DNA of 56,736 nt. Origin: Catajapyx aquilonaris. Its lineage: Eukaryota. Each line of letters starts with the position of its first letter. Position 1 is the first letter of the stretch. The stretch covers positions 62,001-118,736 of the forward strand of contig JYFJ02000610.1 of NCBI GenBank assembly GCA_000934665.2. Reading direction: 5' to 3'. Shown here one piece after another: positions 13,698 through 48,640 of this stretch. The position numbers and the translations under genes are program-made. Under the pieces are notes generated by a model. That model did no database searches. It had not been told where the DNA came from and saw nothing but the letters and a program-made list of their open reading frames with translations.

Positions 13698-14323
13698 TTT
13701 GGCAGCTGAACAAGCAGCAAGATGGATCTGACTTAGTCCCAGATTTTTTCAAGTGTATACGGATATTTGTTCAAGTGTATGCGGATTTGCTAAAGCAAAC
13801 TTTCTTGTTCCAATTTTTGTACTTTTATGAGTTGTGGCTTTTTTTTTAGTTCTTCAAGGAGACTGTTTGCAATAAATAAGTTCCTAATTATGGTGCATTT
13901 CATCTGTCAGTCCCGAGGTTGTATGGGAGAACTTTGCTTGAAGATTTTAACTTTCTGTTTGGTCAACTACGGTGGACTGAGCGATATAAGAGGCTTCAAA
14001 GGGTTGTGGAAATCAATATCCTACAACTGCGGTTTCCTATTTCCGAATGTATGGCCATATATGGAGGTATGGCGAGGCCAGCCTTTTCTGTGGGCTATAG
14101 CCAAGGGTTGTTCATAGCTGAGGCTGTTATATCGGGAGTCAAACTGTATATCTAATAGCGAAACAAGGCTGAAAGTAATGTTAATTATCTTGTGTCATGT
14201 TCACAAAAACACCTGACACCAGAATACAATCATATCCTAATTGGAATTTATTTCATAATGTGAATATACGCTATACAGTTTGTGCACCTGTGTACACTCT
14301 GCGACACTCATCACCAGAGCAGG

Positions 14324-15456: not shown

Positions 15457-15734
15457 CTTTTGTACCGGTACTGCAATAAAATGACAACACAAAAGTCGTG
15501 TCCTTCCTCCCAGATTTTTTTACCTGTTCTACAAAGATCTGAATTGCTGCACACTGATTCAGTAATTACGGTATGGTCTGGTGGACAATGCATAAGAAGA
15601 TTATGATATCGCAGGTAAGGAGGTTGAGGTCTGTTGATTTTTCCACTAACCGGAAACGGAGGACGTCGAACCCTCTTCCTTCTTTTAGACGCCTAGATAC
15701 ATTTGAAACCGTATTTTATTTGCCACTGTACATG

Positions 15735-18138: not shown

Positions 18139-20145
18139 TCACTGATAATAGTTAACCAACATATTCCCATACATTTTCTTCATTCTGGATCGACATCGAA
18201 AAATCTCACCCAAAAATAGTAAGATGCTGAGTACCATAAAGCCACAATGCATCACCAGAGGACCTTTCAACTGACTCACTTTAAGAGCCATTGACAATTT
18301 ATATGACAAATTCTTAGCACGAGCATTTTTTAACTCCATAACTGAACAAGCATGTTGAAAATCTTTTGAAAATTTTTCCAACAATCCACTCTGAACTAAG
18401 TAATATTGTTGTCTCTTCACAATATTGTTCAGTAGTGAGTACTTGTTGACAGATGTCCCTCCAATAATTGTGATTGAAGTGTCATCAACAGCCACTTCAA
18501 TTGGTATACTCCCTTCAAGATCCATTTTCATGTAACCCACAGCATACAGGATATCAGGAAAAGAAAAGCAACTAAAATCTTCCTCAATCGCACGTGTAAG
18601 ACAAGCAAACATATCTTTCCCATCCTGCATTCCTTCAGCCATTGTATGATGAAAATCCAATTCAGAAGATTCAGTCACCATCTTGATATAAGGAGCCATA
18701 AAATCTATAGCACCCCATTGCCAATTGGGCCATGTACCCATTTCCTTAATATCATTAGGAAGTACTTCCATATCAGGTGATACCAAAAATCCAAAAAATT
18801 TTGCTTCATACCCACAGATAATTACTTCAGCAAATAACCACCAGAAACATATTAGAACTCTGAGGGAATCGCCAGTTGGTATTAAGTTAGGATTTTCTTC
18901 AATTAGAGCTGAGAATATATATCGAGCAGAATAGAGCACAATAGATTCAGGCGGATTTTCATCATCAGGAAATGGATATGTCATAGTGTACTGACACTTC
19001 AGAAGGAATAGAAACACTAGGGATGTCATAAAAGCTGTGATCATAATACTACACCACATAGTGTCAGTGTATGGCTTGAAGATGGCGATCCATGAGAACA
19101 AAGGACGTGGTAGTCTTCTGGCGTATGTTATTGTTGTGATGTAGAAACAATTGGGGATGTCCACCACACTTAAGGTCTTGTCTGATCCAAATCCTCCTCC
19201 AATCACAGCTTCCTTTCTAGCCACTGCTCCTATCATACCTGTCCAGTTACCATCAGGTAGTTGGACATCCTGATCCTGTCCGGGTATTTCAGGAGGTGCA
19301 TCTAGATGCCAGTCAAAGTTCATGTGCTCACCCATTAGTAGGAAGATCATCAGAAAGGGTATGACAGGCAGACCTTCTTCGATCAGGAAGCGAAGTTCAT
19401 CAGGAGATGTTTCGATGAAGACAGAGATGTTCAGATGTCGTCCATGTAGGTTGTCCGAATAGTCAGGGTATAGGACTAGGTCATGTGGGGTCACACCGGT
19501 GTTTAGGTGGTAATCTCCACGGTCAACAATCTTCGGGTTTCCGTTGTCGCAATAGTGACAGTTGCTGATGATTTCGATGCCTTTTGACGGTTGGTCGTAC
19601 ACTGCTCCTAGTTGATGCAGAAACTCGTACTCGGGTTCCATCATCGCAGTTTTGATGTCCGAATCGGGGCTGAAGTACAGGAACTTGTCCCATCTAGGGT
19701 TCATCCTGACCACTGTCGCTGTGTGTTTCAGTACCGGATCAAAATGACCATCGTGGTACATCATGACGAAGAGGATGCAGTTGGCGATGAACTTTGATGT
19801 TGGTCGTTCCAACCAGGAGAACCAGTACTCGAAGGCATTGTCCGCACCGGTGAATGGCGGTGGAGGTACGACCGAATCGGACCAACGTATGGGTACGACA
19901 GTGCTACCGGATTCGCTGATGTGTTGAAGCATCACCGAAAATTCAATCGGTAATATTTTGTAATCATGGGACACCACCACCACACAATCCTCTTCGTCTG
20001 ATTGAATCTTCTCAACCAATCCAGCCAACATTTGTTCAGGTTCGTTGATACGGATGGAGTGTGACAACGAAGGTGCTGTAGCCATGCTGTCAGTTATGGC
20101 CAAAATGATAACAATGGGCAACAATCCCCTGAATGTCCCACCCAT
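18139..20145 (-). CDS. Divergent ionotropic receptor (IR/iGluR-like), intronless, 668 aa
   Basis: Signal peptide, S1 motif PDGNWTGMIGAV, IFKPY..MW before M1, pore loop, M2/M3 region LRVLICFWWLF...YEAKFFGFL, and C-terminal TM after LKVSQLKG. Confidence 0.92.
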   Translation of the reverse strand: MGGTFRGLLPIVIILAITDSMATAPSLSHSIRINEPEQMLAGLVEKIQSDEEDCVVVVSHDYKILPIEFSVMLQHISESGSTVVPIRWSDSVVPPPPFTGADNAFEYWFSWLERPTSKFIANCILFVMMYHDGHFDPVLKHTATVVRMNPRWDKFLYFSPDSDIKTAMMEPEYEFLHQLGAVYDQPSKGIEIISNCHYCDNGNPKIVDRGDYHLNTGVTPHDLVLYPDYSDNLHGRHLNISVFIETSPDELRFLIEEGLPVIPFLMIFLLMGEHMNFDWHLDAPPEIPGQDQDVQLPDGNWTGMIGAVARKEAVIGGGFGSDKTLSVVDIPNCFYITTITYARRLPRPLFSWIAIFKPYTDTMWCSIMITAFMTSLVFLFLLKCQYTMTYPFPDDENPPESIVLYSARYIFSALIEENPNLIPTGDSLRVLICFWWLFAEVIICGYEAKFFGFLVSPDMEVLPNDIKEMGTWPNWQWGAIDFMAPYIKMVTESSELDFHHTMAEGMQDGKDMFACLTRAIEEDFSCFSFPDILYAVGYMKMDLEGSIPIEVAVDDTSITIIGGTSVNKYSLLNNIVKRQQYYLVQSGLLEKFSKDFQHACSVMELKNARAKNLSYKLSMALKVSQLKGPLVMHCGFMVLSILLFLGEIFRCRSRMKKMYGNMLVNYYQ

Positions 20146-21400
20146 CTTACTGTCACCAAGTATGACAAGTTGTGAGTCTTACAGGCTGACCCTATACGTC
20201 TTGCCAAATCCTCAAGCCTATTTTGAACTATGAAATTCATAGAAGCCGCCCACTTCAGCTCGTCTTACAAGGAAAATGTCCAATTTCTGGTCATTACTGA
20301 GAGCTATTTGACTATGTAAGACGTAATAAAGGTCATATTGCTTTACTGCACTTTTGTCTATGAGATTAGGTCATCAGTTACACAATGCTATTATTTTGGT
20401 GTATGTAAAAAATTTTTTTAAGATGTTCACAGTTTTTTAAAATTGTTTATTTATTTACGTTATACGTTATTACGCGATAGGGTCATTTATGGGGGTGGAA
20501 TACCACCATCCTTCAATTTTTTTTGTATTTTTGTATTTTTACATTACCTTAGGATTATTACAGTGTAATTTTTTTTACTGGCATAGCCCGAGAGTGGCAC
20601 TGATGTCACAATGGCAACAATGACTTGCACTAGTTACGGCAATAAACTTATTTAACAATTAAAGGCAATGTCAGTGCCATTTCCTGGCGTAATAAATCAT
20701 ATTTACCATTTTTCATTACAGTAACAATTTATTATCATAAACAAGGACGTGTCAAGACTTGTCCAAATAAAATGGCCAGTCAGAATTGACAATAATGACA
20801 TCATTTACATAAAACACATAAATAAAAACCACAGCGTAAATATTCACATAAATTTTGTGACATTTATTATTATTATTATTTACCCCATGATAGGGCTGAG
20901 CCATTTTAGAGGGGAAGGGGAGGTTCCCAAGGGAGGGCGCTGAAATACATCAGACCTTTTCTCCTGGCCCTGGCCAGAGTAGGGAGTGCAATTCTGCCCT
21001 GGCATGTCGGGTGAAAATCGAATTTTTTTGACATTTTCTCCGCCACATAATTTATTTTATAAACATATTAAACATTGTATATTTAACTACATACATAATT
21101 TACAACAATGCATATGTAAATGCAGATTTAAATTTGTATGAATTGTATCAAACCCGAACTTATTTTTTAAAAACTATATGTCATTTCAATGCCATGGGCG
21201 TACCTCACATGCTCAAGAAGTATGGACACTATCATTATTGTCACAATTTCCCAATAATAAGAACCACAGATATGGATATGAAGGGAGCCCGATAACTCTG
21301 ACACTGTGTACATTCCTTTCGCAATGTCACAGGTTAAATTGAGCAAACATGAGTAAAGTGTAGGTTTCAACCATATGTGGAAATCACGCATGTATCACCA

Positions 21401-21435
21401 TATAAAGAGACCTCGTTGACCGAATTTGTTCAGTC
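21401..21435 (+). promoter_or_regulatory. TATA box and initiator of the second IR
   Basis: TATAAAGA at 21401 and arthropod Inr TCAGTC at ~21430, canonical spacing, just upstream of the ATG. Confidence 0.6.
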
Positions 21436-21446
21436 AGCTTACAACC

Positions 21447-23444
21447 ATGCTGTGCGTTCTGTTCATCTTGTATGTGGCTACAGCCGTTGCCCAAAACACC
21501 TCAACTTTGACCTTAACGTATCAGCATCCTGAAAAATACAAGGTGTTAGTGCCCCTTCTGAAGACAGCAATCCACAACGAACGGTCATGGTCGAGGTCAG
21601 AGTGTATGCTGGTGATTGGACATGACCACGCCGTACTTCCAGGACTGTTGAACGACTGGCTGAACGAAGTTTCATCATCAGGAGGTGTCGCCCTACCAAT
21701 CAAATGGGACCCAACAACACCTGACCCCCAACCTAACTCAGGTCATAATAATATCTTCGAATACTGGTTCTCCTGGTTAGAACGTCCTACAAGTCGAAAG
21801 CTCTTCAACTGTCTCGACGTGGTGTTGATCAACCACAACAATGAGAACTTCCTCCGGATGATCAAGTACATCGCCAGTATTGTTAGTATGGACCCTAGAG
21901 AGAACAGACTGATATTCTTCAATCCGGATGGTGATGTACAAAGTGCTATGATGGACCACATACCCGAATATGAGTTTCTATACAAGATGGGACTAGTGTA
22001 TGAGGAAGATTCAGGTGACCTGAAGATTCTGAACAAGTGTCACTTTTGTAATGGAGGTAAGCCGACTATTGAAGATAGAGGGACATACTCTCTGAAGCAT
22101 GGTTTGACACCCCAGAAACTCAAGCTGTTTCCGGATTACTCTACTAATATGGAAGGTGCACACTTAAATATTTCATTTGTCGTTGAGACCAACCCAGAGG
22201 ATGTTAAGTACATGTTTGAGAACAACCTCCCCATTTTCCCATACGTATTCATGTTCTGGGATGCTGGATTGTTGTACAACTTTGATTGGCATTTCGAGTC
22301 ACCTCCTGAGGTTGAAGGTGTTGATGATGAGACCAGATTACCAGATGGAAATTGGACCGGTTTGGTAGGTACCTTACAACAACGACATTCCTCAATGGCC
22401 GCATGTTACTGCACTAGCTCCAGACTCCTGGTGGCAGATATCCCAACCTGTTTCATCAATGCACCAATCACATTTGTACGACGTGTTCCTCGTCCTTTGT
22501 TCACCTGGACCTCCATTTTTAAGCCATTTACCAACGACATGTGGTCAGCTATACTTGGATCAGCACTGGTAACCACACTAATCTTCCTAGCCATCCTCAA
22601 GTTGCAATACCCTCTGAAGTACCCATTTCCTGAAGAGCTTCAGAAACCCAAATCAGATGTCCTCTACTCCTTCAGATTCATTTTCTCAGCCCTAATTGAA
22701 GAAAATCCTAACCTAATTCCAACTCCATCATCCCTCCGTGTCCTCTTGTGCTTCTGGTGGTTGTTCTCAGATCTGATTGTTTGTGGATATGAAGCCAAAT
22801 TCTTCGGGTTTCTAGTGTCTCCTCAACTTGAGGAACTTCCAAACACCTTCAAAGATATGGCTCATTGGGGCAAGAAATGGGAATGGGGATCTATGGATCT
22901 GATTGCACCTCAGATCAAATCAGCTATCGAACCATCAGAATTGGCATACCACAAGATCATCATTGAAAAGATGCAGGATGGTAAGGATATGACAAGGTGT
23001 GTCAGAAGAGCAATCAAAGAAGACTTCAGTTGTGTATCAGTAGCAGCATTGTTATACGCTGTTGCTTATCAACGTATGGACTTAGATGGTAATCTTCCTG
23101 TAGAAGTCTCATCTGATCAGTCTGTGAACGTGTACGCCGGTATGGCAACTATGAAGTACGCTATAATTGGTCCAGCTATTAAGCGATATGCTCAAAGATG
23201 GGTTTCAGCCGCTATGGAAATGAGATATATGGATTACTTTACATTTTCAATTGTAATAATGAGTTTGAAGGACGCACGTAATGACAAACTTTCTTACAAG
23301 TTGTCGATGGAACTTAAGATTGACCAACTGAAGGGTCCTTTGGTTATGCTAATTGGTTTCTTGGTAATTGCTATGATTGCTTTTGTGGGGGAATTAATTC
23401 ACTTTCGCACGGCAAAGAAGAAGCTTCAGGAGTTGGACGAGTAG
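21447..23444 (+). CDS. Divergent ionotropic receptor, intronless, 665 aa (ATG at 21447, not TTG at 21426)
   Basis: Same architecture (PDGNWTGLVG, FKPFTNDMW, YEAKFFGFL, LKIDQLKG). Paralog of the flanking IRs. Confidence 0.92.
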   Translation: MLCVLFILYVATAVAQNTSTLTLTYQHPEKYKVLVPLLKTAIHNERSWSRSECMLVIGHDHAVLPGLLNDWLNEVSSSGGVALPIKWDPTTPDPQPNSGHNNIFEYWFSWLERPTSRKLFNCLDVVLINHNNENFLRMIKYIASIVSMDPRENRLIFFNPDGDVQSAMMDHIPEYEFLYKMGLVYEEDSGDLKILNKCHFCNGGKPTIEDRGTYSLKHGLTPQKLKLFPDYSTNMEGAHLNISFVVETNPEDVKYMFENNLPIFPYVFMFWDAGLLYNFDWHFESPPEVEGVDDETRLPDGNWTGLVGTLQQRHSSMAACYCTSSRLLVADIPTCFINAPITFVRRVPRPLFTWTSIFKPFTNDMWSAILGSALVTTLIFLAILKLQYPLKYPFPEELQKPKSDVLYSFRFIFSALIEENPNLIPTPSSLRVLLCFWWLFSDLIVCGYEAKFFGFLVSPQLEELPNTFKDMAHWGKKWEWGSMDLIAPQIKSAIEPSELAYHKIIIEKMQDGKDMTRCVRRAIKEDFSCVSVAALLYAVAYQRMDLDGNLPVEVSSDQSVNVYAGMATMKYAIIGPAIKRYAQRWVSAAMEMRYMDYFTFSIVIMSLKDARNDKLSYKLSMELKIDQLKGPLVMLIGFLVIAMIAFVGELIHFRTAKKKLQELDE

Positions 23445-25395: not shown

Positions 25396-26316
25396 TTCCT
25401 GACAATATGCAAAATGGTACGAGCTGGCAATAGCACGGAGATTAGTACTCTAATTAATTTATACCGCTACTGATCTCACCTAATTGATTTAATTCTAACT
25501 CATTAAAATTGCCATCGTTGCTCATATTTTTACCTTAATTGAATACCGTACAGTTGTAAGAGAGTATAAAATAGACTTACCGTTGCAACAGTCACTATCG
25601 TCACTATCATCACTACTATAAACTCAACAGAGGACAGTTCCTGCTTCTCCCACTTCAAGAGCTGCTGTTGTCCTCTCACGACAGCGATTTCCTTTTTATG
25701 GGACAATTTCCTCATTTTTTATTAGGCCTAATGGTGTATACACCCCTCTCTTATCGAGGGGACATCGCTTCTGGATTGGGCCCTCCACACACAGCTTATC
25801 AGTTAAATAGCAGGTTGCAACAATCAAGTAAACATGTCAATAACTAAGCTCAGTATAATTAGTGTCAAAATTTCTAAGTAGTAATTAGCATTTCTCACAT
25901 ACAAGGAAACCACTAAAACCAACCTTATCAACAAAGCAAGAACCACTTATCTCTCCATTTAATCCGGCTTGTTGTTACATGCTATTTCCTCCAGCAATTG
26001 TCAAATCAAAAAAGCAACTTATTAATTTTTCAAAATCTGGGTTTCGCAACCAGGTAGACAAGTTGGATGCAATGCATTATTTGATCAGCCTAATAACCAT
26101 CACTTACTGCCTACTAGAAAACAATCCAAGATAAGACTTAAGAGGTCTCTGTCGCAATCGAGCATTTTGGTTGTTTGTGAGATTCGCCAATGGCCAATAG
26201 GCTCTTCAAATATGTATGAATTCGCCTCGAAACAGTCCACTAATAAAAGGCACTTGGTTGTTCAATATTGTTTAGTTGTGTTGCGAGCAGGTCCAACAGA
26301 GTTCTAAAGACACACC

Positions 26317-28311
26317 ATGAAGGTTTTATTGTTGATCATCCTGTCCATACGTGTCACGATAAGTGTGGTGCCTGTGACCATCAAGGATTCGCAAAAACTG
26401 TCTGCACTATCATCATTCTTAAAACTAGCTCACAGCGAAAACCAAGAGTGCCTGCTGGTTCTAGGTCATGACTACACTATCCTTCCTTTAGAACTATCCA
26501 ATTTCCTCAAAGAAGTGTCCGGTCCTTTGAAGCGTCCCATATTACCGATCCGATGGAACCCAACCATACCTGAACCTCCGATCAACAATGGTAAGGACAA
26601 CAACTTTGAGTACTTCTTCTCCTGGCTGGAACGGAAAACGACAAAGGTGCTTGGTAACTGTCTGTTCATCGTGCTGATCAGTCATGATAATACTAACTTC
26701 AGAACCATTCTGAAGTATATGGCAAGTGTGGTGAAGATAGACACTCGTCGTGATCGGATCGCATATTTCAATCCAGATGCTGACCTATCTACGGCTTTGA
26801 TGGACACTGTTAATGATGTGGAGTTTGTGTACAAGATGGGGTTGGTATGGGACGAATCATCGAGGTCAATACAGATTAGGAACAAGTGTCACTTTTGTCA
26901 AGATGGATTCGCTAAGATCATGGAACGTGGGGTGTACCAAGAGGAACATGGTACGACCCCTGCTGACCTGGAGATCTACCCTGATTACACCCTGAACTGC
27001 TACAAAAGACACTACAACGTATCCTTCGTGATGGAAACAGGACCTGAGGATATCCGGTACTTCTTCGAGAACTACCTTCCGGTGTTTCCATACTGCTTCA
27101 TGTACCTGGATGCAGGTGACCACATGAACTTCGATTGGGAGTTCATCACACCTCCTGAAGTTGAAGGTGTTGAAGAAGAAACCCGGTTACCTGATGGCAA
27201 CTGGACCGGATTGGTTGGCGGCCTGCAACAAAGGAATGCTGAACTTACAGCATGTTACTGCACACCTGAACGTTTTGAAGTAGTGGATGTCCCCAGCTGT
27301 TTCATCAACGCACCAATAACATTTGTCATCAGGATGCCCAAACCACTGTTTTCATGGTCAGCAGTCTTCAAGCCATTCACCCCTGACATGTGGACAGCCG
27401 TCATATTCTCCGCTATTGTAACCACCATATTTTTCCTAGCCATCCTCAAGCTTCAGTATCCTATGGGACACCCTTTTCCTGAAGACCAACAGCCTCCTAG
27501 ATCTAACATCCTGTACTCCTTCCGGTTCATCTTCTCTGCCTTGATAGAGGAGAACCCTAATTTGATCCCAACACCTTCGTCACTCCGAGTATTGTTGTGT
27601 TTCTGGTGGCTCTTTGCTGATCTGATTGTCTGTGGGTACGAGGCCAAGTTCTTTGGCTTCCTGGTGTCTCCTGACCTGGAAGATCTTCCAGAAGATTTCA
27701 AGGCAATGTCCACCTGGAAAGGATGGGAATGGGGTGCTATGGATTTGATTGGAAAGCAGATGATGGCAGGTTTGGAACCATCGGAATTGGATTACCATAA
27801 GATCATATTGGCCCAAATGCAGGATGGGAAGGATATGACCGCATGTGTGAAGAGAACCATCAATGAAGACTTCAGCTGCATATCCGTCGCATCTCTTCTG
27901 TACGCTGTTGCATATCAGCGGATGGACTTGGATGGTGAGCTACCTGTCCAGGTGTCTGATGACCGCTCTTTAAATATGAATGCCGGAATTGCTGTGGTTA
28001 AATACTCGCTTATAGGTCCATCTATCCATAAGTATGTCCAGCGATGGTTTCAAGTAGGTATGGAGTTGATGTATTTCCATTACTTCAAAATGTCCATTGC
28101 TTTTGCGAGTTTGAAGGATGCCAGAGCTGAGAGACTGTCCTATAAGTTATCTATGGAGCTCAAGATTGACCAATTGAAAGGTCCATTGGCCATCTACATT
28201 GGGTTCATCTGTCTGTGCATCATATCATTTGTGTGTGAATTAGTTCACTTTCGCATGAAAAAGGAGAAGCGTCTGAATGATTCAGGCTCTGTAAAGATGA
28301 TTGAGCAGTAA
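26317..28311 (+). CDS. Divergent ionotropic receptor, intronless, 664 aa
   Basis: Same architecture, closest to the 21447 paralog. Retains the S1 arginine (TPERF). Confidence 0.92.
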   Translation: MKVLLLIILSIRVTISVVPVTIKDSQKLSALSSFLKLAHSENQECLLVLGHDYTILPLELSNFLKEVSGPLKRPILPIRWNPTIPEPPINNGKDNNFEYFFSWLERKTTKVLGNCLFIVLISHDNTNFRTILKYMASVVKIDTRRDRIAYFNPDADLSTALMDTVNDVEFVYKMGLVWDESSRSIQIRNKCHFCQDGFAKIMERGVYQEEHGTTPADLEIYPDYTLNCYKRHYNVSFVMETGPEDIRYFFENYLPVFPYCFMYLDAGDHMNFDWEFITPPEVEGVEEETRLPDGNWTGLVGGLQQRNAELTACYCTPERFEVVDVPSCFINAPITFVIRMPKPLFSWSAVFKPFTPDMWTAVIFSAIVTTIFFLAILKLQYPMGHPFPEDQQPPRSNILYSFRFIFSALIEENPNLIPTPSSLRVLLCFWWLFADLIVCGYEAKFFGFLVSPDLEDLPEDFKAMSTWKGWEWGAMDLIGKQMMAGLEPSELDYHKIILAQMQDGKDMTACVKRTINEDFSCISVASLLYAVAYQRMDLDGELPVQVSDDRSLNMNAGIAVVKYSLIGPSIHKYVQRWFQVGMELMYFHYFKMSIAFASLKDARAERLSYKLSMELKIDQLKGPLAIYIGFICLCIISFVCELVHFRMKKEKRLNDSGSVKMIEQ

Positions 28312-32329: not shown

Positions 32330-33309
32330 AGTAGCGAAATATATAAATAAAGTAAAATTTTAAGCGTGACAGCAACCCTCTCCCACTGTCACGGGCTGTC
32401 ACCCCCTATGTCACACCCCGTAACCCCCAGAGTCGCAAACTTCTGTCGGCGCCTTTGAGGCTTTGATGTTCGCGTCTCTCTGTTTGGGGCCGTTGCCAAG
32501 GCTGGCGGCCATTTTGAAGTGTGGGTAACGCCAACGAGGTATAAATAGGGTACAGTCAAAAATAAGGTCCGCCATCTTTGATGGTTTTGGCGGCCATGGC
32601 AACTACACGGCCAGAATCAAATATGTCGGACCCTATTTTTGCCTGTACCCTATTTATACCTCCTTGGCGTTGCCCACACTTCAAAATGGCCGCCAGCCTT
32701 GGCAGCGCCCCAAACAGAGAGCCCCAAATCGAATTTTTGCGCCTCTTGAATAAATAAAGTAAATTTTTAAACGTGACAGCAACCCTCTCCCTATGTCACG
32801 GTCTGTCACCCACCATGTCACACCCCGGCCACGCCCCTGTCATACGCTTTTGCTGTTATAACTAGCCATATTATTAATAAACTATACGTTTTAACCTGTT
32901 TTAACCCCACTTGATGTGCCGTACATTTTTATTCTTAAACTTTTTTTATTAACACAACCCTGGCCCACTCCCTGTGCGCAGACACAACCCTCCTCGGCCT
33001 ACTCTCCGCTCTGGTGGCATCGCTTTCTGGTCAATCGATGGTGAGCTCCGTTCCCTTTCGCCCTTCGACCTTCGACCTGACCCCCGCTCGGCCAAAGCAG
33101 GTAAGACCCACGCTCTCTCTCCAGGCGTCACTCCACCCCCAGTGCACGACCCCAGGGCGGCCCACGGCCTGCCCCACAGCCACCCCCCCGAGGCTAGGCC
33201 TAGCCGGCCAACCGACGCCGCTTTGTCCGGGGAGGGCCTGTTTCTAAAGGCACCTTCTGTGGGTTTCAGATCTGAGGTGTGCAGAGCCAGGTTCAAAGCG
33301 GTACCCAAG

Positions 33310-34647
33310 ATGGCAGGAGAACAGCAACAGTTCTGCCTGAAATGGAACGACTTCCAGTCCAACATGGTGACTTCCTTCAAGCACCTCAGGGACGAGCGGA
33401 GCTTCACCGATGTCACCCTGGCCTGTGAGGGACAGACGTGCAAGGCGCACAAGATGGTGCTGTCCGCATGCAGCCCGTACTTCAAGGTATGCAGGTTGCG
33501 GAGGATGGTTTTTAGACTTTCTCATTGGCTGCGTCTGTCCGTGGACAGGTATCAGGGGCTATAGGCCCATACACACAGACGGTTGACGGTTTTGGTCGTG
33601 TTGATGCCGCGGACCAATCATGACTCATGTAAACTAGCTCAACGCTTGTGTTGCGCTTGTGTTGCGCGGCGTCGACGCGACCAAAGACCAAATCCGTCAA
33701 CCGCCTGTGTATGGGCCTTACTGTAAGAGATAGCGGAAAACGGTTTCCGGATTCGGCATGGGACCGTAAATAGATTTACGGTCAACTTCTGGTTGTCCGG
33801 GTTCACTCCGCCAAGGTCAATTTACAGACGGGTATCCTTGGGTGCATGGCAGAAATAGATTGTCAGCCTCAAGCCATAGTGCGTTTACATGAGAACGATT
33901 TGACGAACGAAGTCTTTGCCGAGCAATAACATCGCCGAGTAACCAGTATTGTTTTAGGTGAAAGTAACAATAGATTTTTGCCTCCAACATTACTGGTTAC
34001 TCAGAGTTATCGCCCGGCGATAGCATCGCGCGATCAAATCGCAGACATGTAAACGCCGCTTTACATGCGAGCGATTTATCAGCATCAGACAGTCCCGGTA
34101 AAGTTGGAGACACTTCTGTGACCTTGATCCGACTGAAATTAATGGATTCTATTTGGGCCGAGTTAGCTGCTTTAGGCATGTGTTCGTGTGTTTTTTACCA
34201 TATATTTTATACCGTATTGTCGGGAATGGCAGAGCCCCCTGCTGGAGGGGAGGGCCTGCTGTCTCCCAACTTTATGGTCGGGGCTGTACATCGCCAAGCA
34301 AAAGTAACTATTGGTCTCATTGCTGATAAATCGCATGCATGTAAATCCAGCTTCATTCCCTGCTGCCCAATGAGAAAAAGTCTACTCTAATCGTGCTAGC
34401 TTGATTTTCCAATCATGTTTAACACACACTGTTTGCACAGGCCCTGTTGGAGGAGAACCCCTCGAAGCACCCGATCATTATTCTGAAGGACGTACCGTTC
34501 AACCACCTGCAGTCCATCCTGGAGTTCATGTACGCAGGAGAGGTCAACGTGGCTCAGGAGGAACTAGCCTCGTTCCTGAAGACTGCGGAGCGGCTGAAGG
34601 TCAAGGGACTGGCCGAGGCCCCACAGGCCATTAAGCGAGAGGGATAA
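33310..34647 (+). CDS. lolal: BTB-only protein Longitudinals lacking-like (Batman), 127 aa; exons 33310-33486, 34441-34647; 5' UTR intron 33101-33269
   Basis: QQFCLKWNDFQSNMVTSFKHLRDERSFTDVTLACEGQTCKAHKMVLSACSPYFKALLEENPSKHPIIILKD...KVKGLAE...IKREG* matches Lolal in sequence and length. Confidence 0.96.
33563..33718. mobile_element. PIF/Harbinger-like MITE in the lolal intron
   Basis: GGCCCATACAC...GTGTATGGGCC TIRs with TA-rich flanks. Confidence 0.7.
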
Positions 34648-34832
34648 CTCCGTTGCATCTTTTCTTTCCCTTTTTTTTTTCAGATGTCAGTTCAGGGAAA
34701 TTAAGGGCGACGATTACATAAAGTGAGACTTTGCGTTTGGTCTTATTTGTTTTTAATAAGTGAAGACGAAACATCAGCATTTTTTTTTTTGAAACGATAG
34801 TGTTAGTCCGATAAGTGTTTGTTTTTTTTGCG

Positions 34833-37800
34833 ATGAGGCGGTCGAGGAAAAGACGGTCGAGTGAAGATGAGTACGGTGGTGGCCCGGATTTCAGTTTTGA
34901 GTTGTTCCGATCAGACTTGAATCGGATGTTTTTCCGGGATCGGGATGTCATCCGGGCTGACACACCCGAGTATGAGAACTTCTGGACTTTCCTGCACAAG
35001 TATCTGGAGATGGAGAAGAAGAGTGAGGGGAGACGGGGTGGAGGAGGGTCCAGCCACCACTCTAAAGGTTAATTTCAGTTGACAAATTCTTTTTTCCTTT
35101 TTAAAAAGTGTCGCGTGAGTTTGGGGTCAAGTGTGGATGTGGTAGGAAATAAAATCATGGAAAATTGTGCCCTGTTGTTGTTTTTTGTCATGGCCAAATC
35201 TCTATCACGTAATTGACGGAAACTGATGTACCACGTACGTGCAGCTGTAAAATACCTGGCAATACCGATTAATGTTGATTAACTATGCATAAATCACATA
35301 TTGCAGCCTTAAAACTGGACATGTTTTCATTAAGTTCGGAAAATCTGTCATGTGAATCGGACTCGAGTGACGTCCGATAGTCGACGACAGTGCATGATTT
35401 ATTATCGGTTTTAGTTTACATTTCAAGTAGCGGGGTATTTCCTAGTGAAACATTTGGTTACGCTACTGAAACCTCGTCGATTTTGAAAATTAATTGCTGT
35501 TTTATTTTTCCCTGAATTTAAAATGTATAATTCTTTAAAAGGTATTCACATTCGCAGCAATTACTGTCTGACTGGAATTGAAGCTTTGCAAATAAAACTG
35601 AGAGTTTGGTTCATATTTTGTTTTTATGTGATTAGCGTCCCAGATCCTGCAAAGTTAACATTAGTTTCCACGTACACGTTGCACCTGGCACTGACACTGG
35701 TTGTTAACGCAGGTGGTTCCGGCACCCTGAACATTCCGCACACGTATGACAAGCGACACTGCATCAACTTTTCCCTTTCGACGGGAAGCAACGAGGAGCT
35801 ACTGAGCCGACTACCACCGAAAGACGAAGGGGAGAGGAAAATTCCGTTGCAGAAACTGGAGTCGTTCAAGCACATCCTCGCTGTGTACCTGGATTTTTTG
35901 CAGAAGGAGAAGTTCGCAAAGTTGTCGAAACTCAGGAGGAGTCAAGCCAACCTTCCCATCGCTCAATTCAGGTTAGTATGGGTCAGGTTATGCGACTGGT
36001 TGAGTCAGATTGTTAATCCGCAGGGATGAGATTGTGACCGCTGTGAGTACGAAGCGGGTCGTGATAATAGCTGGCGACACGGGTTGTGGAAAGTCGACTC
36101 AAGTGCCGCAGTACCTCCTCAGAGCTGGGTTCAAGCGGATTGGTAAGTCGGTGACAATTTGTTTGACGTAAGCTACTAATGCAACAAAATGCTTCCGAAG
36201 CTTGCACTCAGCCGAGGCGGATCGCCTGCATTGCCCTGACCAAGCGAGTGGCCTACGAGACCCTCAACGAGTTTGGCTCTGAGATTGGCTACCAGATTCG
36301 GTTTGAGAGACGGAAGACCCAGCACACCAGGATGCTCTTTCTGACGGAAGGACTTCTTTTGAGACAGGTTATTCGGACACTACTGGATCCCATAACAGAT
36401 TTGGTTACGTCATTTTTATTATCAGGTGTCGAGCGACTCGATGCTGTCGAACTATGATGTGGTGGTCCTTGATGAGGTTCATGAGCGCCACCTTCATGGC
36501 GATTTCCTCCTGGGCATCATGAAGTGCTTGGTTCGCCAGAGGGAGGACGTCCGAATCGTTCTCATGTCCGCCACCATTAACATCCCCCTTTTTCAAAATT
36601 ATTTTGGCGGACAGGCACCCGTATTACAGGCAAGTATCGCTCTGTGTCAGACTCGGGCTACACTCATCGCTGCATTTTTAGGTACCTGGCCGGCTGTTCC
36701 CCATCCGCGTTCAGTACCGCCCAATCTCAGCAGTGGAGCTGTCGAGCAAATCTGGCCGAATCAACCCTGCCCCATACGTGCGCATAATGCAGTTAGTGGA
36801 CTCCAAGTACCCACAGGACGAGCGGGGAGACCTTCTGGTATTTTTGAGTGGTGCCACGGAGATCTCCATTGTAGTGGAAGCGGCCAAGGAGTACGCGAAA
36901 CACACAGGCCGCTGGGTGATTCTTCCCCTGCATTCCACCCTGTCCGTCCAGGAGCAGGATCGGGTGTTTGACTACCCCCCAGAAGGTGTTAGGAAATGTG
37001 TTGTAGCCACCAATATTGCTGAGACTTCCGTCACAATAGATGGAGTCAGATTTGTTGCTGATTCTGGGAAGATGAAGGAGATGACCTACGACCCTGAGTC
37101 GAGGATGCAGAGACTAAAGGAGTTTTGGGTCAGCCAAGCAAGTGCGGAACAGAGGAAGGGAAGGGCAGGTCGCACAGGTCCCGGAGTATGCTTTAGGCTG
37201 TACTCCGAAGCAGACTACCAGGCAATGAACGCGTACTCGATGGCCGAGATCCACCGAGTACCTCTGGACTCTCTAGTTCTCCAAATGCTGTCCATGGGTC
37301 TTCCTGACGCACGCAAGTTCCCTTTCATCGAGTCGCCTGGAGAGGGTGGGGACGGAGTCGAGAAGGCCCTGGCATCCCTGAAGGAGCAAGTGTGCATTAC
37401 CATGGAGGACGCAGGGGAAACGCAAGGACTGACCCCATTGGGAAGAGCATTGGCTCGACTGCCTGTTGACGTTGGGGTTGGGAAGATGCTGGTCATGGGC
37501 TCCATCTTCAGACAAGGAGAAGCTGTCATGGCCGTTGCGGCTGCTCTCAGTGTGCAGACGCCATTCACCAACAGGGCGTACAGAGACACTGACTGCATGG
37601 TAAGTGCACGTAACTTCATTCATGAATACCGTCTAATGTCACCCTGGCATTTCAGGCTGCAAGGAAATCCCTGGAGTCTGATCACGGCGATCCGATCACT
37701 TTGTTCAATGCTTTCCAAGGCTGGCTGCAGGTGAAGGCCGACCCCAGAGGAAACTCCAGGAGATGGTGTCGTCACAGGGGACTTGAAGAGCAGAGATTCT

Positions 37801-40400
37801 ATGAGACTACTAAACTGCGGCAACAGTTCAAGGAGCTGCTTCAGGATGCGGGGTTGCTCGAGTGCGGCAAGAGCCCTGACGAGATGAGCAGTTCGGAGAG
37901 GACTCGAAGGCACGGAGAAATGAAGAGACTTCGCCACTTGAAGCGGGAGTATCATCAGGCGGCACCTAGAAAGAAACGAATTCTTGATATGCATGGGGAC
38001 GATGATGATGTTGAAGGTGGGTTTGTCGTTTGTGTTTTTACAGCCATACTGGACATGTATGCCTCCACAGGTGAAGAGGAAAAGGACGAGATTGATATCA
38101 AGGACGTGGAGTTCCGCATGAAGAACGACAGCGGACAAGTGGAAGAACTTTTGTCCCGGACGGCCACTTTCACCTACCAGGACATCATGCTGATCAAGAT
38201 TATTCTGTGCAGCGGGCTGTATCCGCAGTTCGCCATAGCCGATGCACATAATTCATACAAGGTATGACCATTACATTACCAGGCTATGAAGTTAGTTAAC
38301 AATATGTCAATTTCAGAGCGATGCTGACCAGCTGTTCCACACTAGGGCCAAATCCTTCGTGGTGCTTCACCCGTTATCATCCTTTGCCAATGACCCAGAG
38401 GTTCTCTGCCTGCGAGACACTGACATTGTGCAAAGCCCTGGTTTTGGAAAGCTGCCGGTTAGCAGCAAGCACCAGCTGTTATGTTACCTGTGAGTTGTGT
38501 ACTTACGAGCACGTTTCAAAAGTACCAAGCATTATTTTCTGTCTCCGTAGATCACTGTTGGAGACCACGAAGCCGTACCTGATGAGCTCATTCCGCATGC
38601 CGGCTGCCCAAACATTGCTGCTGTTCTGTCAGTCCATCGACACTAACGAAAGATTCTCCAGGTTGGTCGTCTGGTTTTTGTTTACGAGGAAATGTACTCA
38701 GGTTGTCTCTTAAATACTGTTGAAATAGGATGGTGTGTGACTCGTGGATAGAACTGCAGTTTCCAAATGAGGAGTCGGGCGAGACACTGCTGGTAAAGAG
38801 CATCCGACTTAGGGAGTTGTGGGAGGACCTCATTGCCGCCCGATTGAAAGGTCAGTCGCTGAGTACGCAGCCGTCAAGCAGTATGTTACAACAGTATGTT
38901 TTCCCCCCAGGCACGAGTGACAAGGAGGGAGAAGCAGACGCCTCTCCTGCCCTCGACAAGACCATGCGGGACCTTGACCGCAAGTTGGCCCGCGACATGG
39001 TTGACTTCCTTCACACCGAAGTCTGCTACACAATCCAGCGCCTTCTACCTGCTGACATCAAGAATTTGTATGTGGGACCCATCGAAACATACTCTCTGGA
39101 CAAGCCAGGTCCGAGCGACACCAAGGACGAACCTCCAGAGGGGGAAGCGACAGCTGACGACAACCCTTTCGAGCCTGGAAGGAAGCCTGTGCCACACCAA
39201 ATCAAAGGAGGGCTTCGAATGACTGACTTCCTTACGTACAACTGGTTAGTGTCATGCGAGATCATACGAGAATTTTTAACATGTCAATAATTTGTTTTCG
39301 AAGTTTGGTGGACAAAGGCGACGTGGGTCACTCCGAGTACCTCCACTCCGCATGGACTTGCCCTCACTGCGAAATTAGTTTGTATGTGACCGGCCTCGAG
39401 AGGGTGAGGCACCAGACTGTCTGCAAGGCGCTGCTTATGGAAGGTCTGTACCCGCAATATTTTCATAGTTGTCACGGAGGGTTTATGAGCTCTCATGGGC
39501 TAGTCAATCCGCCTTAAAACCATCTGACCCTGTCCATAGTTGTCCACAAGACATATCGGGTTGTTCCGACGGGTACACGTGGAGTTTGCCATTAAAGGTG
39601 CAAACGCAAAAGCAATTTGAGTCCACGCCAACAATTTCGGAAGGTCCTCCACCCGTGTCCTTCCAGACACATTTCTCAAGACGTGCTCATTGCCAAATCA
39701 GTAAGGCGTACCGTTGGTCCGTTGCGCTTGACTTTTTGGCTGCATTGTCGTCAACATATGGCTGAATATTATCCGCAGTTTCATGTGCGTCTGCATGTGA
39801 CTGCTGCCTTCGTCTATTAATAATCCTCCTTGGAATAGTTGCCTTTCGCCAAACAAACTCTGCGAAATTCACATACGGTTTTTTTCCATGCGAAATGACG
39901 TCACTTGAGGAGAAATCAGCTGATTACAGTGTTGCCACAGGTTGCAAAATGTGCAAGGTCACGAGCCTTTGAGACGCAGAGGAAAGGATATCGACCTCGA
40001 ACCACGATCGATGGTCTGCAAGAGAGTGTCGCAGATCTACGCAGTTCATATCTTTGTTGGAATAAATAGAGAGGGTCGTAGTCCTAGGTTGTTACCCCAG
40101 AGGTGTTGCCATATGTAGACAAAGGGAGTGACGTAAAAAAAAGCACGAGGTGTCTTGCTGCATGGGTGACGTCAGGAGGAAATGCGTCAGGTTCTTGCAA
40201 TTTCTGAAAATAAATGAACATATGTGTAGTTATGTATGCACCCACTGATGTACCGCTGCCTTTCAGATGAGGATACCGGACCGGCCGAAGAGAAGAAGCC
40301 GGGGAAGGCGTACTACTGCGATGCTTGCGACAAGGAGTTGTACTTGACCCCGATTGACATACTGCGACACAAGAAGGAACATATGACTAGCGACAAGTAG
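34833..40400 (+). CDS. DHX34: DEAH-box RNA helicase DHX34 (~1155 aa, 14 exons: 34833-35067, 35713-35971, 36024-36142, 36201-36367, 36426-36629, 36682-37599, 37656-38016, 38071-38261, 38317-38489, 38551-38661, 38729-38850, 38911-39244, 39304-39443, 40267-40400)
   Basis: Motifs [33 protein letters not shown] and [15 protein letters not shown]34-type features are [17 protein letters not shown] and the C-terminal CxxC...H...H motif ([23 protein letters not shown]). The exon sum of 3468 nt is in frame. Confidence 0.93.
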
Positions 40401-41420
40401 TGGTCTGCACCGTTGCATGCATTGTTTTCTAGAGCGAATGATTTGTGTATCCCGTATAATAAAGAGGATTGGTAATTTGAGGATGTGTTGAGCGGTTTGA
40501 TTTCAGTTGCACAGTTCGTCAGTACCAAGCACGAAACGCCCTGGAACATCCTATGGATATCTACATATCCACTGAATCTCCGCTGGATATTTCGATGTCC
40601 ATAGGATGTGACTGTGCTACTTGGGAAAGGTACTGGTATGTCAAAAATTCATTGGTGGACACTGGACAGAAAAAAGGCTGTACAAAACTAGTAAATAAAA
40701 TTGATAACAATTTGATTTAGTTATGTATAAATAATTTTGTGAAATTCTCTGTGTGAATAAGAGGCCTATGTATTTTAATATGTGGCAGGTCTTGCACGAT
40801 GCGATGATACATAAAGTCATACGATTAGAGCAGTTCAATTAGTTGCTGGGTTTAGATTGTTGTTGCTGAGTATTCCAACAATAGCTCATTTTTTAATTGT
40901 TCTGCAGTTATTTTCCTATTTAAAAATGGAACAAAGTGTACCGTCATGTGCACACACTTATTACATGTTAACACCAAGCCGTTTCTCTGATGCAACTGTT
41001 AATTTTTAATAAGCAAGCCCAATATATGGGCCACATTTTAACCATATTATTAATTAAAAATAGGCGTTAATTTAACCGTATAATGCATCGACGTTCCATC
41101 CCTTATTACTCCCTTCAGAACGAACGCCCATGACCCATACACATATCATCCTGTAGCTAAAAAATTCCGCCATCATTTAATCACACCATTTTCGAAAACT
41201 AAACCGACGCCAGAGCAGCACAGCCCATTTTCCAAAAAATAAATTTCGTCATACAGTCGCCGCCATCTTGCCATCCACTAAATCAATTTAACCAATTTTA
41301 AAGCATAAAACCCCGCCAGCCGAACGTTACTTGTTAAAGTAGTAACAATGAAGTTAATCACTATTTAAAACAATTGAATTTAGTAAACAAATTTCCCCTG
41401 GTTTCCCCCAACGACGGTGG

Positions 41421-41518
41421 TGACGTCACGGTTTCCAGACGCTTCCGACCAATCAGAGCCGCGTTCGATATCTGCCAGCCAATGGGAAGGCTACGCGTTG
41501 GAAGGTCGGGATAAAAAG
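41421..41518 (+). promoter_or_regulatory. Polyubiquitin promoter elements
   Basis: CRE TGACGTCA (41421), imperfect HSE TTCcaGACgcTTC (~41433), two CCAAT boxes and TATA-like GATAAAAA (~41510). A 5' UTR intron follows at ~41673-41816. Confidence 0.55.
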
Positions 41519-41671
41519 GGAAGGGAAAGGGTGGGGAGGATTCAATAGCAGTTGAGGCGTCGAGGAGAGTGGTCGTGTGTCTGCGAGAGAGAGACGAGAG
41601 TAGAGAGAGAGAGGCTATAAAGGCGAGGCTAGAGACTGCATTGTTCGACTATTGTCCGCTGTGAAATTTAA

Positions 41672-43968
<2,297 letters not shown>

Positions 43969-45752: not shown

Positions 45753-46610
45753 AACAAGATTGGCAAATCACGTGAGCGTGATTAGAGTACACTTTTTCAT
45801 GTTTACATTTTACTGCTATTGTCTCTAACGTCCGTCACGGTACTGGGACTGAAAGTGAATCAACCCAACTGACTTTCGGCCAAAAGTGGACGTACCCTTT
45901 TCCCCCCTCCCCCTTCCTACCCCAGACCGCCCCTTTCCCCTTTAAACAACATATTCCAGCAAACCCATCTGTTATACATTTTTTCATCCATCGAAAATAG
46001 TCTTATAGCACGGCTCTGTCCGTCCGTCCGTCCGTCTGTGGACAGGTGTAATGATAAGAGGAGGGAGGGCCGGAGGGGGGAAATGGCGATCTGGGGGAGG
46101 GGGCGGTGCTGTGGGGGGACTGGACCAGGAGGAAAGGAACTGCCTAGCGAGGATGGGGCGGTCATCAGGGGTAGGTGGTGGTGGGGGGAAGGGGCGGTGG
46201 GGGGAGGGGGCGGATAGAGTGAACCCGGAACCCAAAAATCGAAAGAAAGTCCTGTAGTCCGGCTCTGTCTGTTGGTTCATGAGGATAGGTGAACAGGTAG
46301 GCCTATGTTACTAATATGGATATTCTGCAGCTTTGCTTTTTATTGCTCAAGAAACTGTAAATCTTTGTGAAACATTTTAACAAAAATTTTAACCACCGTG
46401 TTATAGTTTCCAATGTAGCCTACATTCAGGCTGCAACAGTTTTAGTACAAATACAATTATATTGGCTATCATTGTGCAAATTGAAATGAAAGTGAGTATC
46501 GATACAATACGTATCGGATTTTTTATATCGGTATATCAGAGTATCGATATAAGACTTTGCAGCAGTTGGGCGAGCTCTCCCACTTGTGGTCCCCAAGGGC
46601 TGTAGGCTGC

Positions 46611-48640
46611 CTACTTGCCGCCACGCAGGCGCAGCACCAGGTGGAGCGTCGACTCCTTCTGGGTGTTGTAGTCGCTCAGGGTACGGCTGTCCTGCAGCTG
46701 CTCGCCGGCGATGCTCAAGCTCTGCTGATCTGGCGGGATCCCTACGTTGTTCTGGATCTTGGCCTTCACGTTCTCGATGGTGTCTGAAGGGTCGGACTCC
46801 AGTTGGAAGGTCAGGGTCGCCGCCGCCGTCGTCATCGTCACCATGATCTGCGTACCACCTGACATGCAATAAATTTTTAGAATGTGTCCAACAATGTTTC
46901 TAGGATGTTTAAAGGGACATTCCACTCAAAATACAAGTTGGCCCCCAAAAATCGGGCAAAAAATCCTGATTCCGAATGTGCAATCGGTTTTTTCCTACGC
47001 CCAACGGTAACACGGAAAATAATATATCTTATACACACGTCGTCTGCTAAGAAGGGCGATACAACAGCATCTCGCGGCAAACCGGAGAAGTAGAGAATGT
47101 GCCGCGCCCAGGGTCACCTACATGAGTGCCTCCCCCACCTAGACAGTTAGACAGTTAGGGTGGGGGAGGCAACCATGTAGGGGACCCTGGCCGCGCCAGG
47201 ATGCTTTCTCTAGTTCCGCCCCGTTCCACTCTGGTGGCGGCCACCGCCCCGCGCGCGGTTTTCGAACGACACACTTCCAGCTTTCACACTGGCCTTACCG
47301 TTCGTCTCTAAGAAAAGCTGCTTATACCCTCGGAATCAGAATTTTTTGCCCGATTTTTAGAACGAAACTTGTATTTTGAGTGCAGTGTCCCTTTAAATGA
47401 AGGCGAGAGAACAATCTGAACTGGTCTCGGCACAAGAAGGGAGCGTGACTCAACCTGACCCGACTCAGAATGAAAGTCATGTCAAGTGTTGCAGGTGCAT
47501 CATTCTTTGTTGGCATATTATACCCACTAATTTCACTCCATAACCCGTGTAACCAAGAGTATATAATGTAACTTATCAAAGTTTGCCTCTAAAAATCGGG
47601 CAAAAAAAAACCTGAATCCGATGGTGCAATTCGTTTTTCGCTACGCGGAACGGTAATCCGAGGGTGAGGTGTCAAAGTGTGTCGTCTGCTAATGAGCGGC
47701 GTCGCCACGCGGGGAACAGGGGAACTGGTGGGCTGCACCGCTCTGGGATGAGCCTAAGCGCGGGGGCAGATGGGAGCAGCTATCCAGTTCCCAAGGTCCC
47801 GAGGGCGTCGCTGGCGGACGGCCAGCTTCTGGCGCACTATTTGAATTTCCCCACTTTGACCCCTCGCCCTCGCCCTCGCCCTCGCCCTCGCCCTGGGATT
47901 GCCGTTCCGCGTAGCGAAAAACTGATTGCACCTTCGGATTCCAGGATTTTCTGCCAGATTTTTAGACCCAAACTTGTTTTTTTTTTTAGTGGAGTGTCCC
48001 TGGCCTATTTCTGCTGCAAAGAGGACCGACGCCAGGGGGGTGGTCCTCCTCCTGGAAATTTGCCCACTCTGGGGATCTTTAACGTGCACTCGCGCAATGT
48101 CACAAGCACACGGGACCGACGGCTTTAATTCCCCTCCGAAGGAAGACGCACTCTCACTTTTCTACCACCTGGAGAAAAGTCACCGACCTCGGTCGTCCGG
48201 GTTCGAACCCACAACTTTGGGTCTAGAGGCGAGCGCGCTAACCACCAGACCACCAGCGCCGGCTACCCGTGTAACCTGTGTAGACTGCCCCTCTACTCAC
48301 AAAGACGAATAATTCCCCCTATAATAATCGTCCTATTTTTTCACTCTCTGTCTGGAATGCTCCAGTGAGTGGGAGAGGGAGGTCGGGGGCCTTGGTGAGT
48401 GCTGCCACCTTCTGGTGACTCCACTAACTCATCAGGGCAGGAGATTTTGCCCATTTTTGGCTACGGGGTGCACTAGTAACATTGAAATCAAGAGGGCATG
48501 CTCTCAATCAAGCAGGTCCCACAATCTGTGGTTACACAGCAGTGGATAGGCTACTCACCTGCAGGCAGTCCCAGGGACAGGAAGAAGAATAAGAAGGTCA
48601 CGATGGTCATCCAGGTCAAGCCAGGAAAGATCTTCGTCAT
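46611..48640 (-). CDS. Putative signal-peptide-bearing divergent ubiquitin-like protein (109 aa); exons 48640-48559, 46858-46611
   Basis: Exon 1 is [34 protein letters not shown] (phase 1). The exon 2 acceptor gcatgtcag|GT GGT is also phase 1 and leads to TQIMV...[13 protein letters not shown]...[11 protein letters not shown]. There are no stops or frameshifts. A minus-strand AATAAA lies at ~46339-46344. Confidence 0.65.
46913..47392. mobile_element. Kolobok-like non-autonomous TIR element; related degenerate copy at ~47580-48000
   Basis: TTAA|AGGGACA...TGTCCCT|TTAA with ~60-bp imperfect TIRs. Confidence 0.72.
48020..48262 (-). mobile_element. tRNA-derived SINE-like element
   Basis: The minus strand reads TGGTCTGGTGGTTAGCGCGCTCGCC...GGGTTCGAACCC, followed by a non-tRNA body. 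Confidence 0.55.

Follow-up and report, generated by a model that had tools for sequence, protein, structure and literature searches.

How are two genes on the same strand transcribed when only 185 nucleotides (nt) separate the stop codon of the first from the start codon of the second? The question is raised by lolal and DHX34 in Catajapyx aquilonaris, which lie head to tail on a 56,736-nt stretch of contig JYFJ02000610.1 (assembly GCA_000934665.2, positions 62,001 to 118,736). This whole stretch is called the window here, and all coordinates are positions within it. A preliminary description had placed both genes in one transcription unit. Each feature on which it built was found where it had been placed: the lolal stop (34647), the DHX34 ATG (34833), a CAG ending at 34683, a 6-codon frame and an AATAAA at 35148. 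The overlap that it proposed gained support as well: a stretch of RNA seems to begin in lolal, cross the gap and DHX34 exon 1, and reach DHX34 intron 1. The lolal mRNA probably ends inside this intron, and we tentatively favor a separate start for DHX34.

The RNA source was a single run of unrecorded kind (X1), compared with positions 32850-41550, with 8 of its 43 pieces and 6 of its 18 loose ends listed. The assembly has 12 joints at predicted introns of both genes and was read as an assembly of spliced RNA because these 12 introns are skipped. One 1476-nt contig carries the joints 33100^33270 and 33486^34441 and is then unspliced from 34441 to 35602, with no gap or differing letter. Its three pieces (lolal exons 1 and 2, and 34441-35602) total exactly 1476 nt. 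RNA cover is continuous from lolal exon 1 to 35602. The contig reads through the acceptor-like site at 34683, DHX34 exon 1, the donor at 35067 and the AATAAA at 35148, and it halts 6 nt past a second AATAAA (35591), 110 nt before the end of DHX34 intron 1. Since a contig with both lolal joints is unspliced over 35067 while 12 other introns are removed, lolal probably ends in DHX34 intron 1, with a 3' untranslated region (UTR) of about 960 nt. We infer that the cover represents one molecule and that the signal at 35591 is the one used. The preliminary description had also polyadenylated lolal in this intron, but at the signal at 35148; the contig end agrees with the choice of intron, but the contig passes 35148, and the probable end of lolal shifts 440 nt downstream.

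Both lolal and DHX34 are real, intact, single-copy genes. lolal is a 127-amino acid open frame that starts at ATG 33310, is joined at 33486^34441 and stops at TAA 34645-34647, as translated from the window. It is a BTB-only protein with a PF00651 match on both coding exons. Its exon 3 is 79-90% identical to 93 protein matches (126-234 amino acids), of which the named ones are lolal, and the next-best BTB exon in the genome reaches 68%. Searches for further copies of either gene covered the 285.6-Mb assembly. The spliced lolal leader carries a 22-codon upstream frame (33038-33275) whose ATG at 33038 has a weak start context. Several inverted-repeat elements lie in the intron 2 region 33560-34350; one of them, at 34055-34350, had 327 candidates in a first look at the genome, and the 40 that were scored showed 76-85% identity, excluding the element itself. 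Just 5' of lolal (32343-32827), a 78-nt direct repeat, 91% alike, stands on both sides of a 260-nt inverted-repeat element. This repeat includes the AATAAA behind a hemocyanin/phenoloxidase-family gene, and the insertion seems to have duplicated that gene's polyadenylation (poly(A)) signal.

DHX34 was modeled with 14 coding exons and 13 introns, giving 1155 amino acids with no internal stop. It is a full-length DEAH helicase, including the N-terminal motif, whose best matches are named DHX34. Exon 6 is 62-68% identical to the 120 listed proteins, and the best eight homologues reach 53-57% over about 1150 amino acids. Exon 1 was considered as a false exon, which was rejected because it matches 75 of the 120 DHX34 homologues at E<1e-3 and shuffled sequences matched in 0 of 20 cases; no second exon 1 or exon 2 was found elsewhere in the genome. 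A weak donor at 35067 was likewise rejected, as this donor matches the consensus at 7/9 positions, like eight others of the 15 donors in the two models. Most other DHX34 introns are 52-67 nt long, compared to 645 nt for intron 1. In a quick tree (37 rows), the protein fell loosely beside a springtail and outside the winged insects with support of 84. The DHX34 entry of the springtail Orchesella cincta (P0011) begins only at the end of the region of exon 2, and this annotation may also miss the first exon. Intron 5 (36630-36681) has a GC donor, where a contig joint fits. Intron 7 (38017-38070) is 54 nt long, in frame and stop-free; it is spliced out in the contig, and its retention would add 18 residues. 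The features of the locus are collected in Table 1.

Table 1. Coordinates of features at the lolal-DHX34 locus, in window positions.
Feature	Position	Strand	Remarks
lolal non-coding exon 1	33004..33100	+	contig joint 33100^33270, short side 94 letters; strong donor at 33100; left limit is the beginning of the contig, not a mapped start
lolal exon 2	33270..33486	+	ATG 33310; first half of BTB domain; contig and Pfam
lolal intron 2	33487..34440	+	954 nt; filled by inverted-repeat elements; donor-like sites 34303 and 34340
lolal exon 3, coding part	34441..34647	+	stop 34645-34647; contig and protein matches
Probable lolal 3' UTR	34648..35602	+	at least 955 nt; cover by contig with both lolal joints
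Acceptor-like pyrimidine/T tract ending in CAG	34658..34683	+	use in splicing not seen
6-codon short frame	34684..34704	+	in the reading frame of lolal; weak start context
Initiator-like word TCAGTT	34687..34692	+	a start here would skip ATG 34684 and give an ATG-free 144-nt leader
DHX34 coding exon 1	34833..35067	+	78 codons and 1 base; conserved N-terminal exon
DHX34 intron 1	35068..35712	+	645 nt; in-frame stop directly after donor; joint unseen in contigs
First AATAAA	35148..35153	+	GT/T-rich sequence behind; contig continues past
Second AATAAA	35591..35596	+	CA at 35612-35613, then T/GT-rich sequence; probable lolal poly(A) signal; contig stop at 35602 is a hint
DHX34 coding exons 2-14	35713..40400	+	homology; 10 of 13 introns appear as contig joints (not 1, 2 and 4)

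The gap between the genes was examined for signals that could end lolal or begin DHX34. A motif check agreed with the preliminary description that it holds no AATAAA or ATTAAA; the weak variants CATAAA (34717) and AATAAG (34755) are present. No structured element was found in it, and the gap is not more structured than shuffled sequences (z -1.15). All 20 positions before the CAG at 34683 are pyrimidines. Only six sites with at least 19/20 pyrimidines occur on both strands of the window, and two of the eight runs of at least nine T in the window are inside the gap, so the pyrimidine tract exceeds chance. The preliminary description had called this a strong acceptor, which is right as to its composition and rarity, but the site is unlike the local acceptors and its use was not seen. 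The 15 acceptors of the lolal and DHX34 models have 9-14/20 pyrimidines, and the best candidate acceptors before 15 other BTB exons have 11-15/20 (15 of 20 loci were scored; the motif search missed the other five). Tracts of 18-20/20 also follow the lolal stop in five of 26 other lolal loci that have no DHX34, and in the neighboring TPR gene a T-run ending in AG lies within the 3' UTR (13839-13849). Because the tract is atypical for local acceptors and like tracts follow other lolal stops and occur in the TPR 3' UTR, it is real but does not prove splicing. The claim that there is no obvious local donor held for the gap and lolal exon 3, where the best site matches at 6/9 positions, but not for lolal intron 2, where sites 34303 and 34340 reach the 7/9 found among the real donors of both genes (7-8/9; 8/9 for donor 33100). 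Fusion of the BTB and helicase frames was rejected, as no AG in the gap past the last in-frame stop sets lolal exon 2 in frame with DHX34; no BTB-helicase fusion protein was found among the 120 listed of 1345 DHX34 matches or among the 93 lolal matches.

We infer that DHX34 has its own start, and signs in the sequence lean weakly that way. The ratio of observed to expected CpG is 1.04 in 34648-36142 (72 seen, 69.0 expected). It is 0.76 over the remainder of DHX34, and lolal exons 2-3 together with the last part of intron 2 have 0.57. All six control genes also stayed below 1.04 at an equal distance from the start codon (0.28-0.75, pooled 0.54), as did a frame behind a Sec1-family gene of the same genome (0.29). 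In this genome, gene bodies tend to have a lower ratio than gene starts, and NCG codons are more frequent in DHX34 exons 1-3 (15/36) than later (40/203, p 0.009). A CpG-rich patch of this kind is what a second, local promoter would give, which leans toward such a promoter and is not proof of one. The gap also holds TCAGTT, an initiator-like word. The DHX34 ATG has a purine at -3; on the lolal RNA it is preceded by nine ATGs, among them that of lolal itself in a strong context. No DRE, motif 1, motif 6, motif 7 or E-box consensus was found in 32700-35100.

Several points weigh against a separate DHX34 start and against our reading of the RNA. The CpG interval was picked after the profile had been seen, so the p-values obtained (0.004-0.014; 2e-6) are overstated, and on non-coding bases alone the enrichment has p 0.09. 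A second codon measure was flat (11/30 vs 70/157, p 0.55), in two controls the ratio was no lower in the body than at the start (0.73 to 0.75; 0.58 to 0.58), and lolal intron 2 is likewise CpG-rich (1.02). The control start codons were partly estimated, and the comparison is one of sequence and not of methylation. A word of the initiator-like kind would occur by chance in 185 nt with a probability of 0.22 and an ATG-free leader has p 0.17, neither of which is significant, while the start regions of lolal and of the polyubiquitin gene have no initiator-like word. Few sites in the window resemble the acceptor-like one, which has a 41-nt AG-free zone. A promoter within a transcribed exon must also cope with passing polymerases, and the DHX34 start was not seen in the X1 contigs. 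These contigs come from one run and show no start, end, strand or single molecule, so that the unbroken contig reaching from lolal past the DHX34 start is not the same as one transcript.

In the window as a whole and in L110-L113, gene bodies are poor in CpG (down to 0.05-0.4), and several gene starts have a ratio near 1. This pattern suggests gene-body methylation in this species.

With these points weighed, our preference, which falls a little short of an even chance, is for two overlapping genes on the same strand with their own starts, of which lolal ends in DHX34 intron 1. Transcription of lolal would begin at about 33000, and the RNA would be spliced twice and polyadenylated at about 35610, so that its 3' UTR would include the DHX34 leader and first coding exon, untranslated. 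DHX34 would start from a second promoter within the last exon of lolal, most likely near 34689, and its pre-mRNA would splice out intron 1 along with both AATAAA signals. The T tracts of the gap would then be promoter or U-rich UTR sequence, with no acceptor in use. Under this explanation and every one below except a merged assembly, the donor at 35067 would compete with the poly(A) signals on each transcript that reaches them. Cleavage of a DHX34-started RNA in intron 1 would yield a 79-amino acid stub, while splicing of a lolal-started RNA at 35067 would yield an RNA that has two frames and extends about 4 kb past the stop of lolal.

The preliminary description had one promoter make both mRNAs, for which we found no support so far: the site at 34683 is read through unspliced and no joint into 34684 is listed. 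One form of this proposal, which is possible but rather unlikely, is a shared promoter and leader exon, with lolal exon 1 spliced to 33270 for lolal or to 34684 for DHX34; in a variant, an intronic start would use donor 34303 or 34340 at the end of lolal intron 2. The strength of donor 33100, which is in use, fits this explanation, and an acceptor-like site this extreme may be needed in competition with 33270 and 34441. The joined leader has two upstream ATGs, each in a weak context, and the DHX34 ATG has its purine at -3. The acceptor of the frame behind the Sec1-family gene is also above the local norm, with at least 17/20 pyrimidines, and copepod lolal contigs keep a conserved acceptor about 130 nt past the stop, before a second gene. 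However, the predicted junctions 33100^34684 and 33486^34684 are both unlisted and the only contig covering the site is unspliced there, while 33100^33270 is seen; contigs drop rare forms, so an unlisted joint is not an absence. With this joint, moreover, an ATG would fall right on the junction and an upstream frame of 27 codons would result, and the CpG-rich patch suits a local promoter better. A quite unlikely explanation is a dicistronic mRNA from one promoter, mostly cleaved in intron 1 and partly spliced at 35067^35713, with DHX34 made by internal entry or re-initiation in the gap. No new promoter or junction is required for this, lolal is short, and the gap is short, U-rich and, as mentioned, no more structured than shuffles. 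Drosophila offers a precedent in 159 pairs, 69 of them with one gene also monocistronic, in the accessible part of PMC4528330. The nine upstream ATGs, however, argue against leaky scanning, and about 4 kb past the first stop would be expected to draw nonsense-mediated mRNA decay (NMD) by 3' UTR length. Re-initiation after 127 codons is poor. The contig holds lolal and DHX34 exon 1, and no contig links lolal to DHX34 exon 2, but this is no test, as exon 2 (35713-35971) lies outside the cover; introns 1, 2 and 4 lacked cover or a joint, and no joint across intron 1 is listed in X1.

An ordinary tandem pair is less probable still. Here lolal would end in the gap at CATAAA 34717 or AATAAG 34755, DHX34 would start nearby, and the contig would be an assembly merge of lolal mRNA with DHX34 RNA that keeps intron 1 or is cut in it. 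It is true that a contig spanning two genes proves no single transcript and that these weak hexamers exist, but the contig takes the unspliced path into intron 1 and halts just past a canonical signal. If intron 1 has a functional poly(A) site, some gene must use it, and lolal has no earlier canonical signal. The least probable explanation, to which we give hardly any weight, is an operon resolved by spliced-leader trans-splicing at 34684. The length of the gap and an orphan pyrimidine-rich TTTCAG resemble operon spacing, and in copepods lolal sits in an apparent unit of that type. The lolal leader here, in contrast, is a genomic exon joined in cis, and the contig carries no foreign 5' letters. 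The preliminary description had raised trans-splicing at 34684, for which we found no support in this genome: none of the six listed loose ends lies there, and the copepod leader has 0 matches in the genome at up to two mismatches, which leaves room for a different leader. No canonical poly(A) signal in the gap precedes the acceptor at 34683, and the end of lolal RNA apparently lies past the site, whereas in operons it would lie before it. Among the leader-bearing groups named in the accessible part of PMC7986045 are copepods and amphipods, but not hexapods. Lastly, we give only a small chance to a combined proposal in which the lolal promoter drives DHX34 too and the output is set by a choice at the RNA level, between splicing of the leader to 34684 with removal of intron 1, which would make DHX34 mRNA, and cleavage at 35610, which would make lolal mRNA; RNA spliced as for lolal that also loses intron 1 would be an NMD target with two frames, stabilized and yielding some DHX34 when NMD is weak. 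In this proposal, lolal would repeatedly stand at the head of two-gene units whose second gene varies, and the units would be resolved by leader trans-splicing in copepods and by cis-splicing of the first exon of lolal here.

The idea that an RNA with lolal upstream of the DHX34 introns is an NMD substrate had rested on exon junctions. The exon junction complex has no apparent role in Drosophila NMD, according to the accessible part of PMC2689706, but a 4-kb 3' UTR could trigger NMD instead, and the spliced lolal-DHX34 RNA is a plausible NMD target through its 3' UTR length. DHX34 mRNA is under negative feedback by NMD in human cells and zebrafish (Longman et al. 2013, PMC3783168). In that loop, the mRNA responds to loss of NMD and carries upstream frames. 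As far as the accessible text of that study goes, the loop works through upstream frames and the skipping of exons in DHX34 itself, involves no upstream protein gene and concerns vertebrates only. If the read-through form is NMD-sensitive, the known feedback would extend to an arthropod via a new route.

Conservation of the pair was examined in 80 metagenome loci. DHX34 was found in none of them (120 DHX34 proteins in tblastn, plus an N-terminal profile; best E 0.17), and the same search recovered the window itself as a positive control. Of these loci, 26 are lolal, with at least 500 nt behind the stop in 25, at least 1 kb in 18 and at least 2 kb in nine; the count omits L035 and L036, which are not lolal, and the partial L037, and it covers few lineages, with several near-identical loci. 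By accession number, lolal and DHX34 are not neighbors in four bees (Ceratina calcarata, two Hylaeus species and Andrena cerasifolii) or in the stick insect Timema californicum, where the nearest gap is 529 numbers and accession order is only a proxy for adjacency. The synteny check suggested by the preliminary description, therefore, did not recover the pair in the 26 other lolal loci or the five insect annotations. The pair seems lineage-restricted as far as seen, in a comparison without close relatives. No paper naming both lolal and DHX34 was found in a search mostly outside the subscription literature, the accessible part of PMC5026256 has nothing on the neighbors of lolal, and neither lolal nor two CG numbers were found in 12 supplement files of PMC4528330.

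In three copepod contigs (L022:426-1460, L024:471-1497 and L025:432-1459), lolal is followed 190-210 nt on by an EF-hand gene on the same strand, and the gap between them has a conserved branch-like CTAAT, a pyrimidine tract and TTTCAG. An RS-rich gene follows lolal on the same strand by 149 nt in L018 and 447 nt in L017, and L037 joins this lolal-plus-gene group, judged by eye. L022 and L018 encode lolal proteins identical to entries labeled Neocalanus flemingeri and Calanus glacialis, respectively. Eleven of the 80 loci, made up of lolal and other BTB transcripts and including L018, L022 and L025, begin with a common 5' sequence, a putative spliced leader. The copepod unit looks like a leader-resolved operon or a dicistronic unit, in contigs that prove no single transcript. 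Operons were unreported in copepods as of 2021, according to the accessible part of PMC7986045.

Other features of the window were also recorded. Three related intronless frames of about 670 amino acids, at 18139-20178 (-), 21420-23444 (+) and 26308-28311 (+), have a CpG ratio of about 0.5. The one that was scanned has a ligand-gated ion channel domain, and all three are probably divergent ionotropic receptors. The TPR gene, in the region 10679-15480, has a 2.4-kb intron. A frame without a Pfam family (14738-15280) lies about 1 kb on, and in front of it stands a T12 run with AG at its end (14710-14725). Within its repeat array, the polyubiquitin gene (41825-43968) is interrupted by an intron (about 42278-42362); the minus strand near 46400-46900 (46426-46899) carries a decayed ubiquitin-like copy.

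FlyBase release 6.04 lists 159 dicistronic pairs and 130 genes that share a promoter and 5' exons (Crosby et al. 2015, PMC4528330), while a 3' UTR over the 5' UTR of the next gene is too common there to be flagged (section 8 of that paper). Overlapping pairs are left out of PMC8972054, in its accessible part. Like the same-strand UTR overlaps of Drosophila melanogaster and the FlyBase 'Complex/atypical overlap' sets, lolal and DHX34 are head-to-tail genes in a compact arthropod genome, and their transcribed regions appear to overlap on one strand. Unlike the UTR overlaps of that species, the overlap here apparently spans the whole of DHX34 exon 1 and 535 nt of intron 1. The locus also resembles pairs that share 5' exons, such as Ip259/RpS27A (PMC4528330), in having a non-coding first exon, a strong donor and an acceptor-like site before the second gene, but the junction that defines such pairs is unseen at lolal-DHX34. 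With the dicistronic pairs, as far as the accessible text describes them, it shares a short upstream frame, a short gap and a contig that covers the first frame and the start of the second. The contig, in contrast, holds the first 78 of 1155 DHX34 codons and then a stop, and as seen it is a lolal mRNA.

As DHX34 exon 1 lies inside RNA that assembles as lolal 3' UTR, annotation pipelines would truncate DHX34 or misassign its reads. If the signal at 35591 is used, the same stretch of pre-mRNA would be cleaved for lolal and spliced for DHX34, which would be a clean natural test of promoter or first-exon identity against the choice between splicing and 3'-end formation. Polyadenylation in intron 1 of PCF11 reportedly acts as an attenuator (PMC6458999). 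The locus is like that vertebrate case in that a poly(A) signal in a long intron 1 would compete with splicing. Unlike the PCF11 site, in what the accessible text gives of it, the site here seems to be where another gene, lying upstream, normally ends, and any regulatory role is putative. Among these systems, the locus appears to work like the overlap of a 3' UTR with the 5' UTR of the next gene, in a deeper form.

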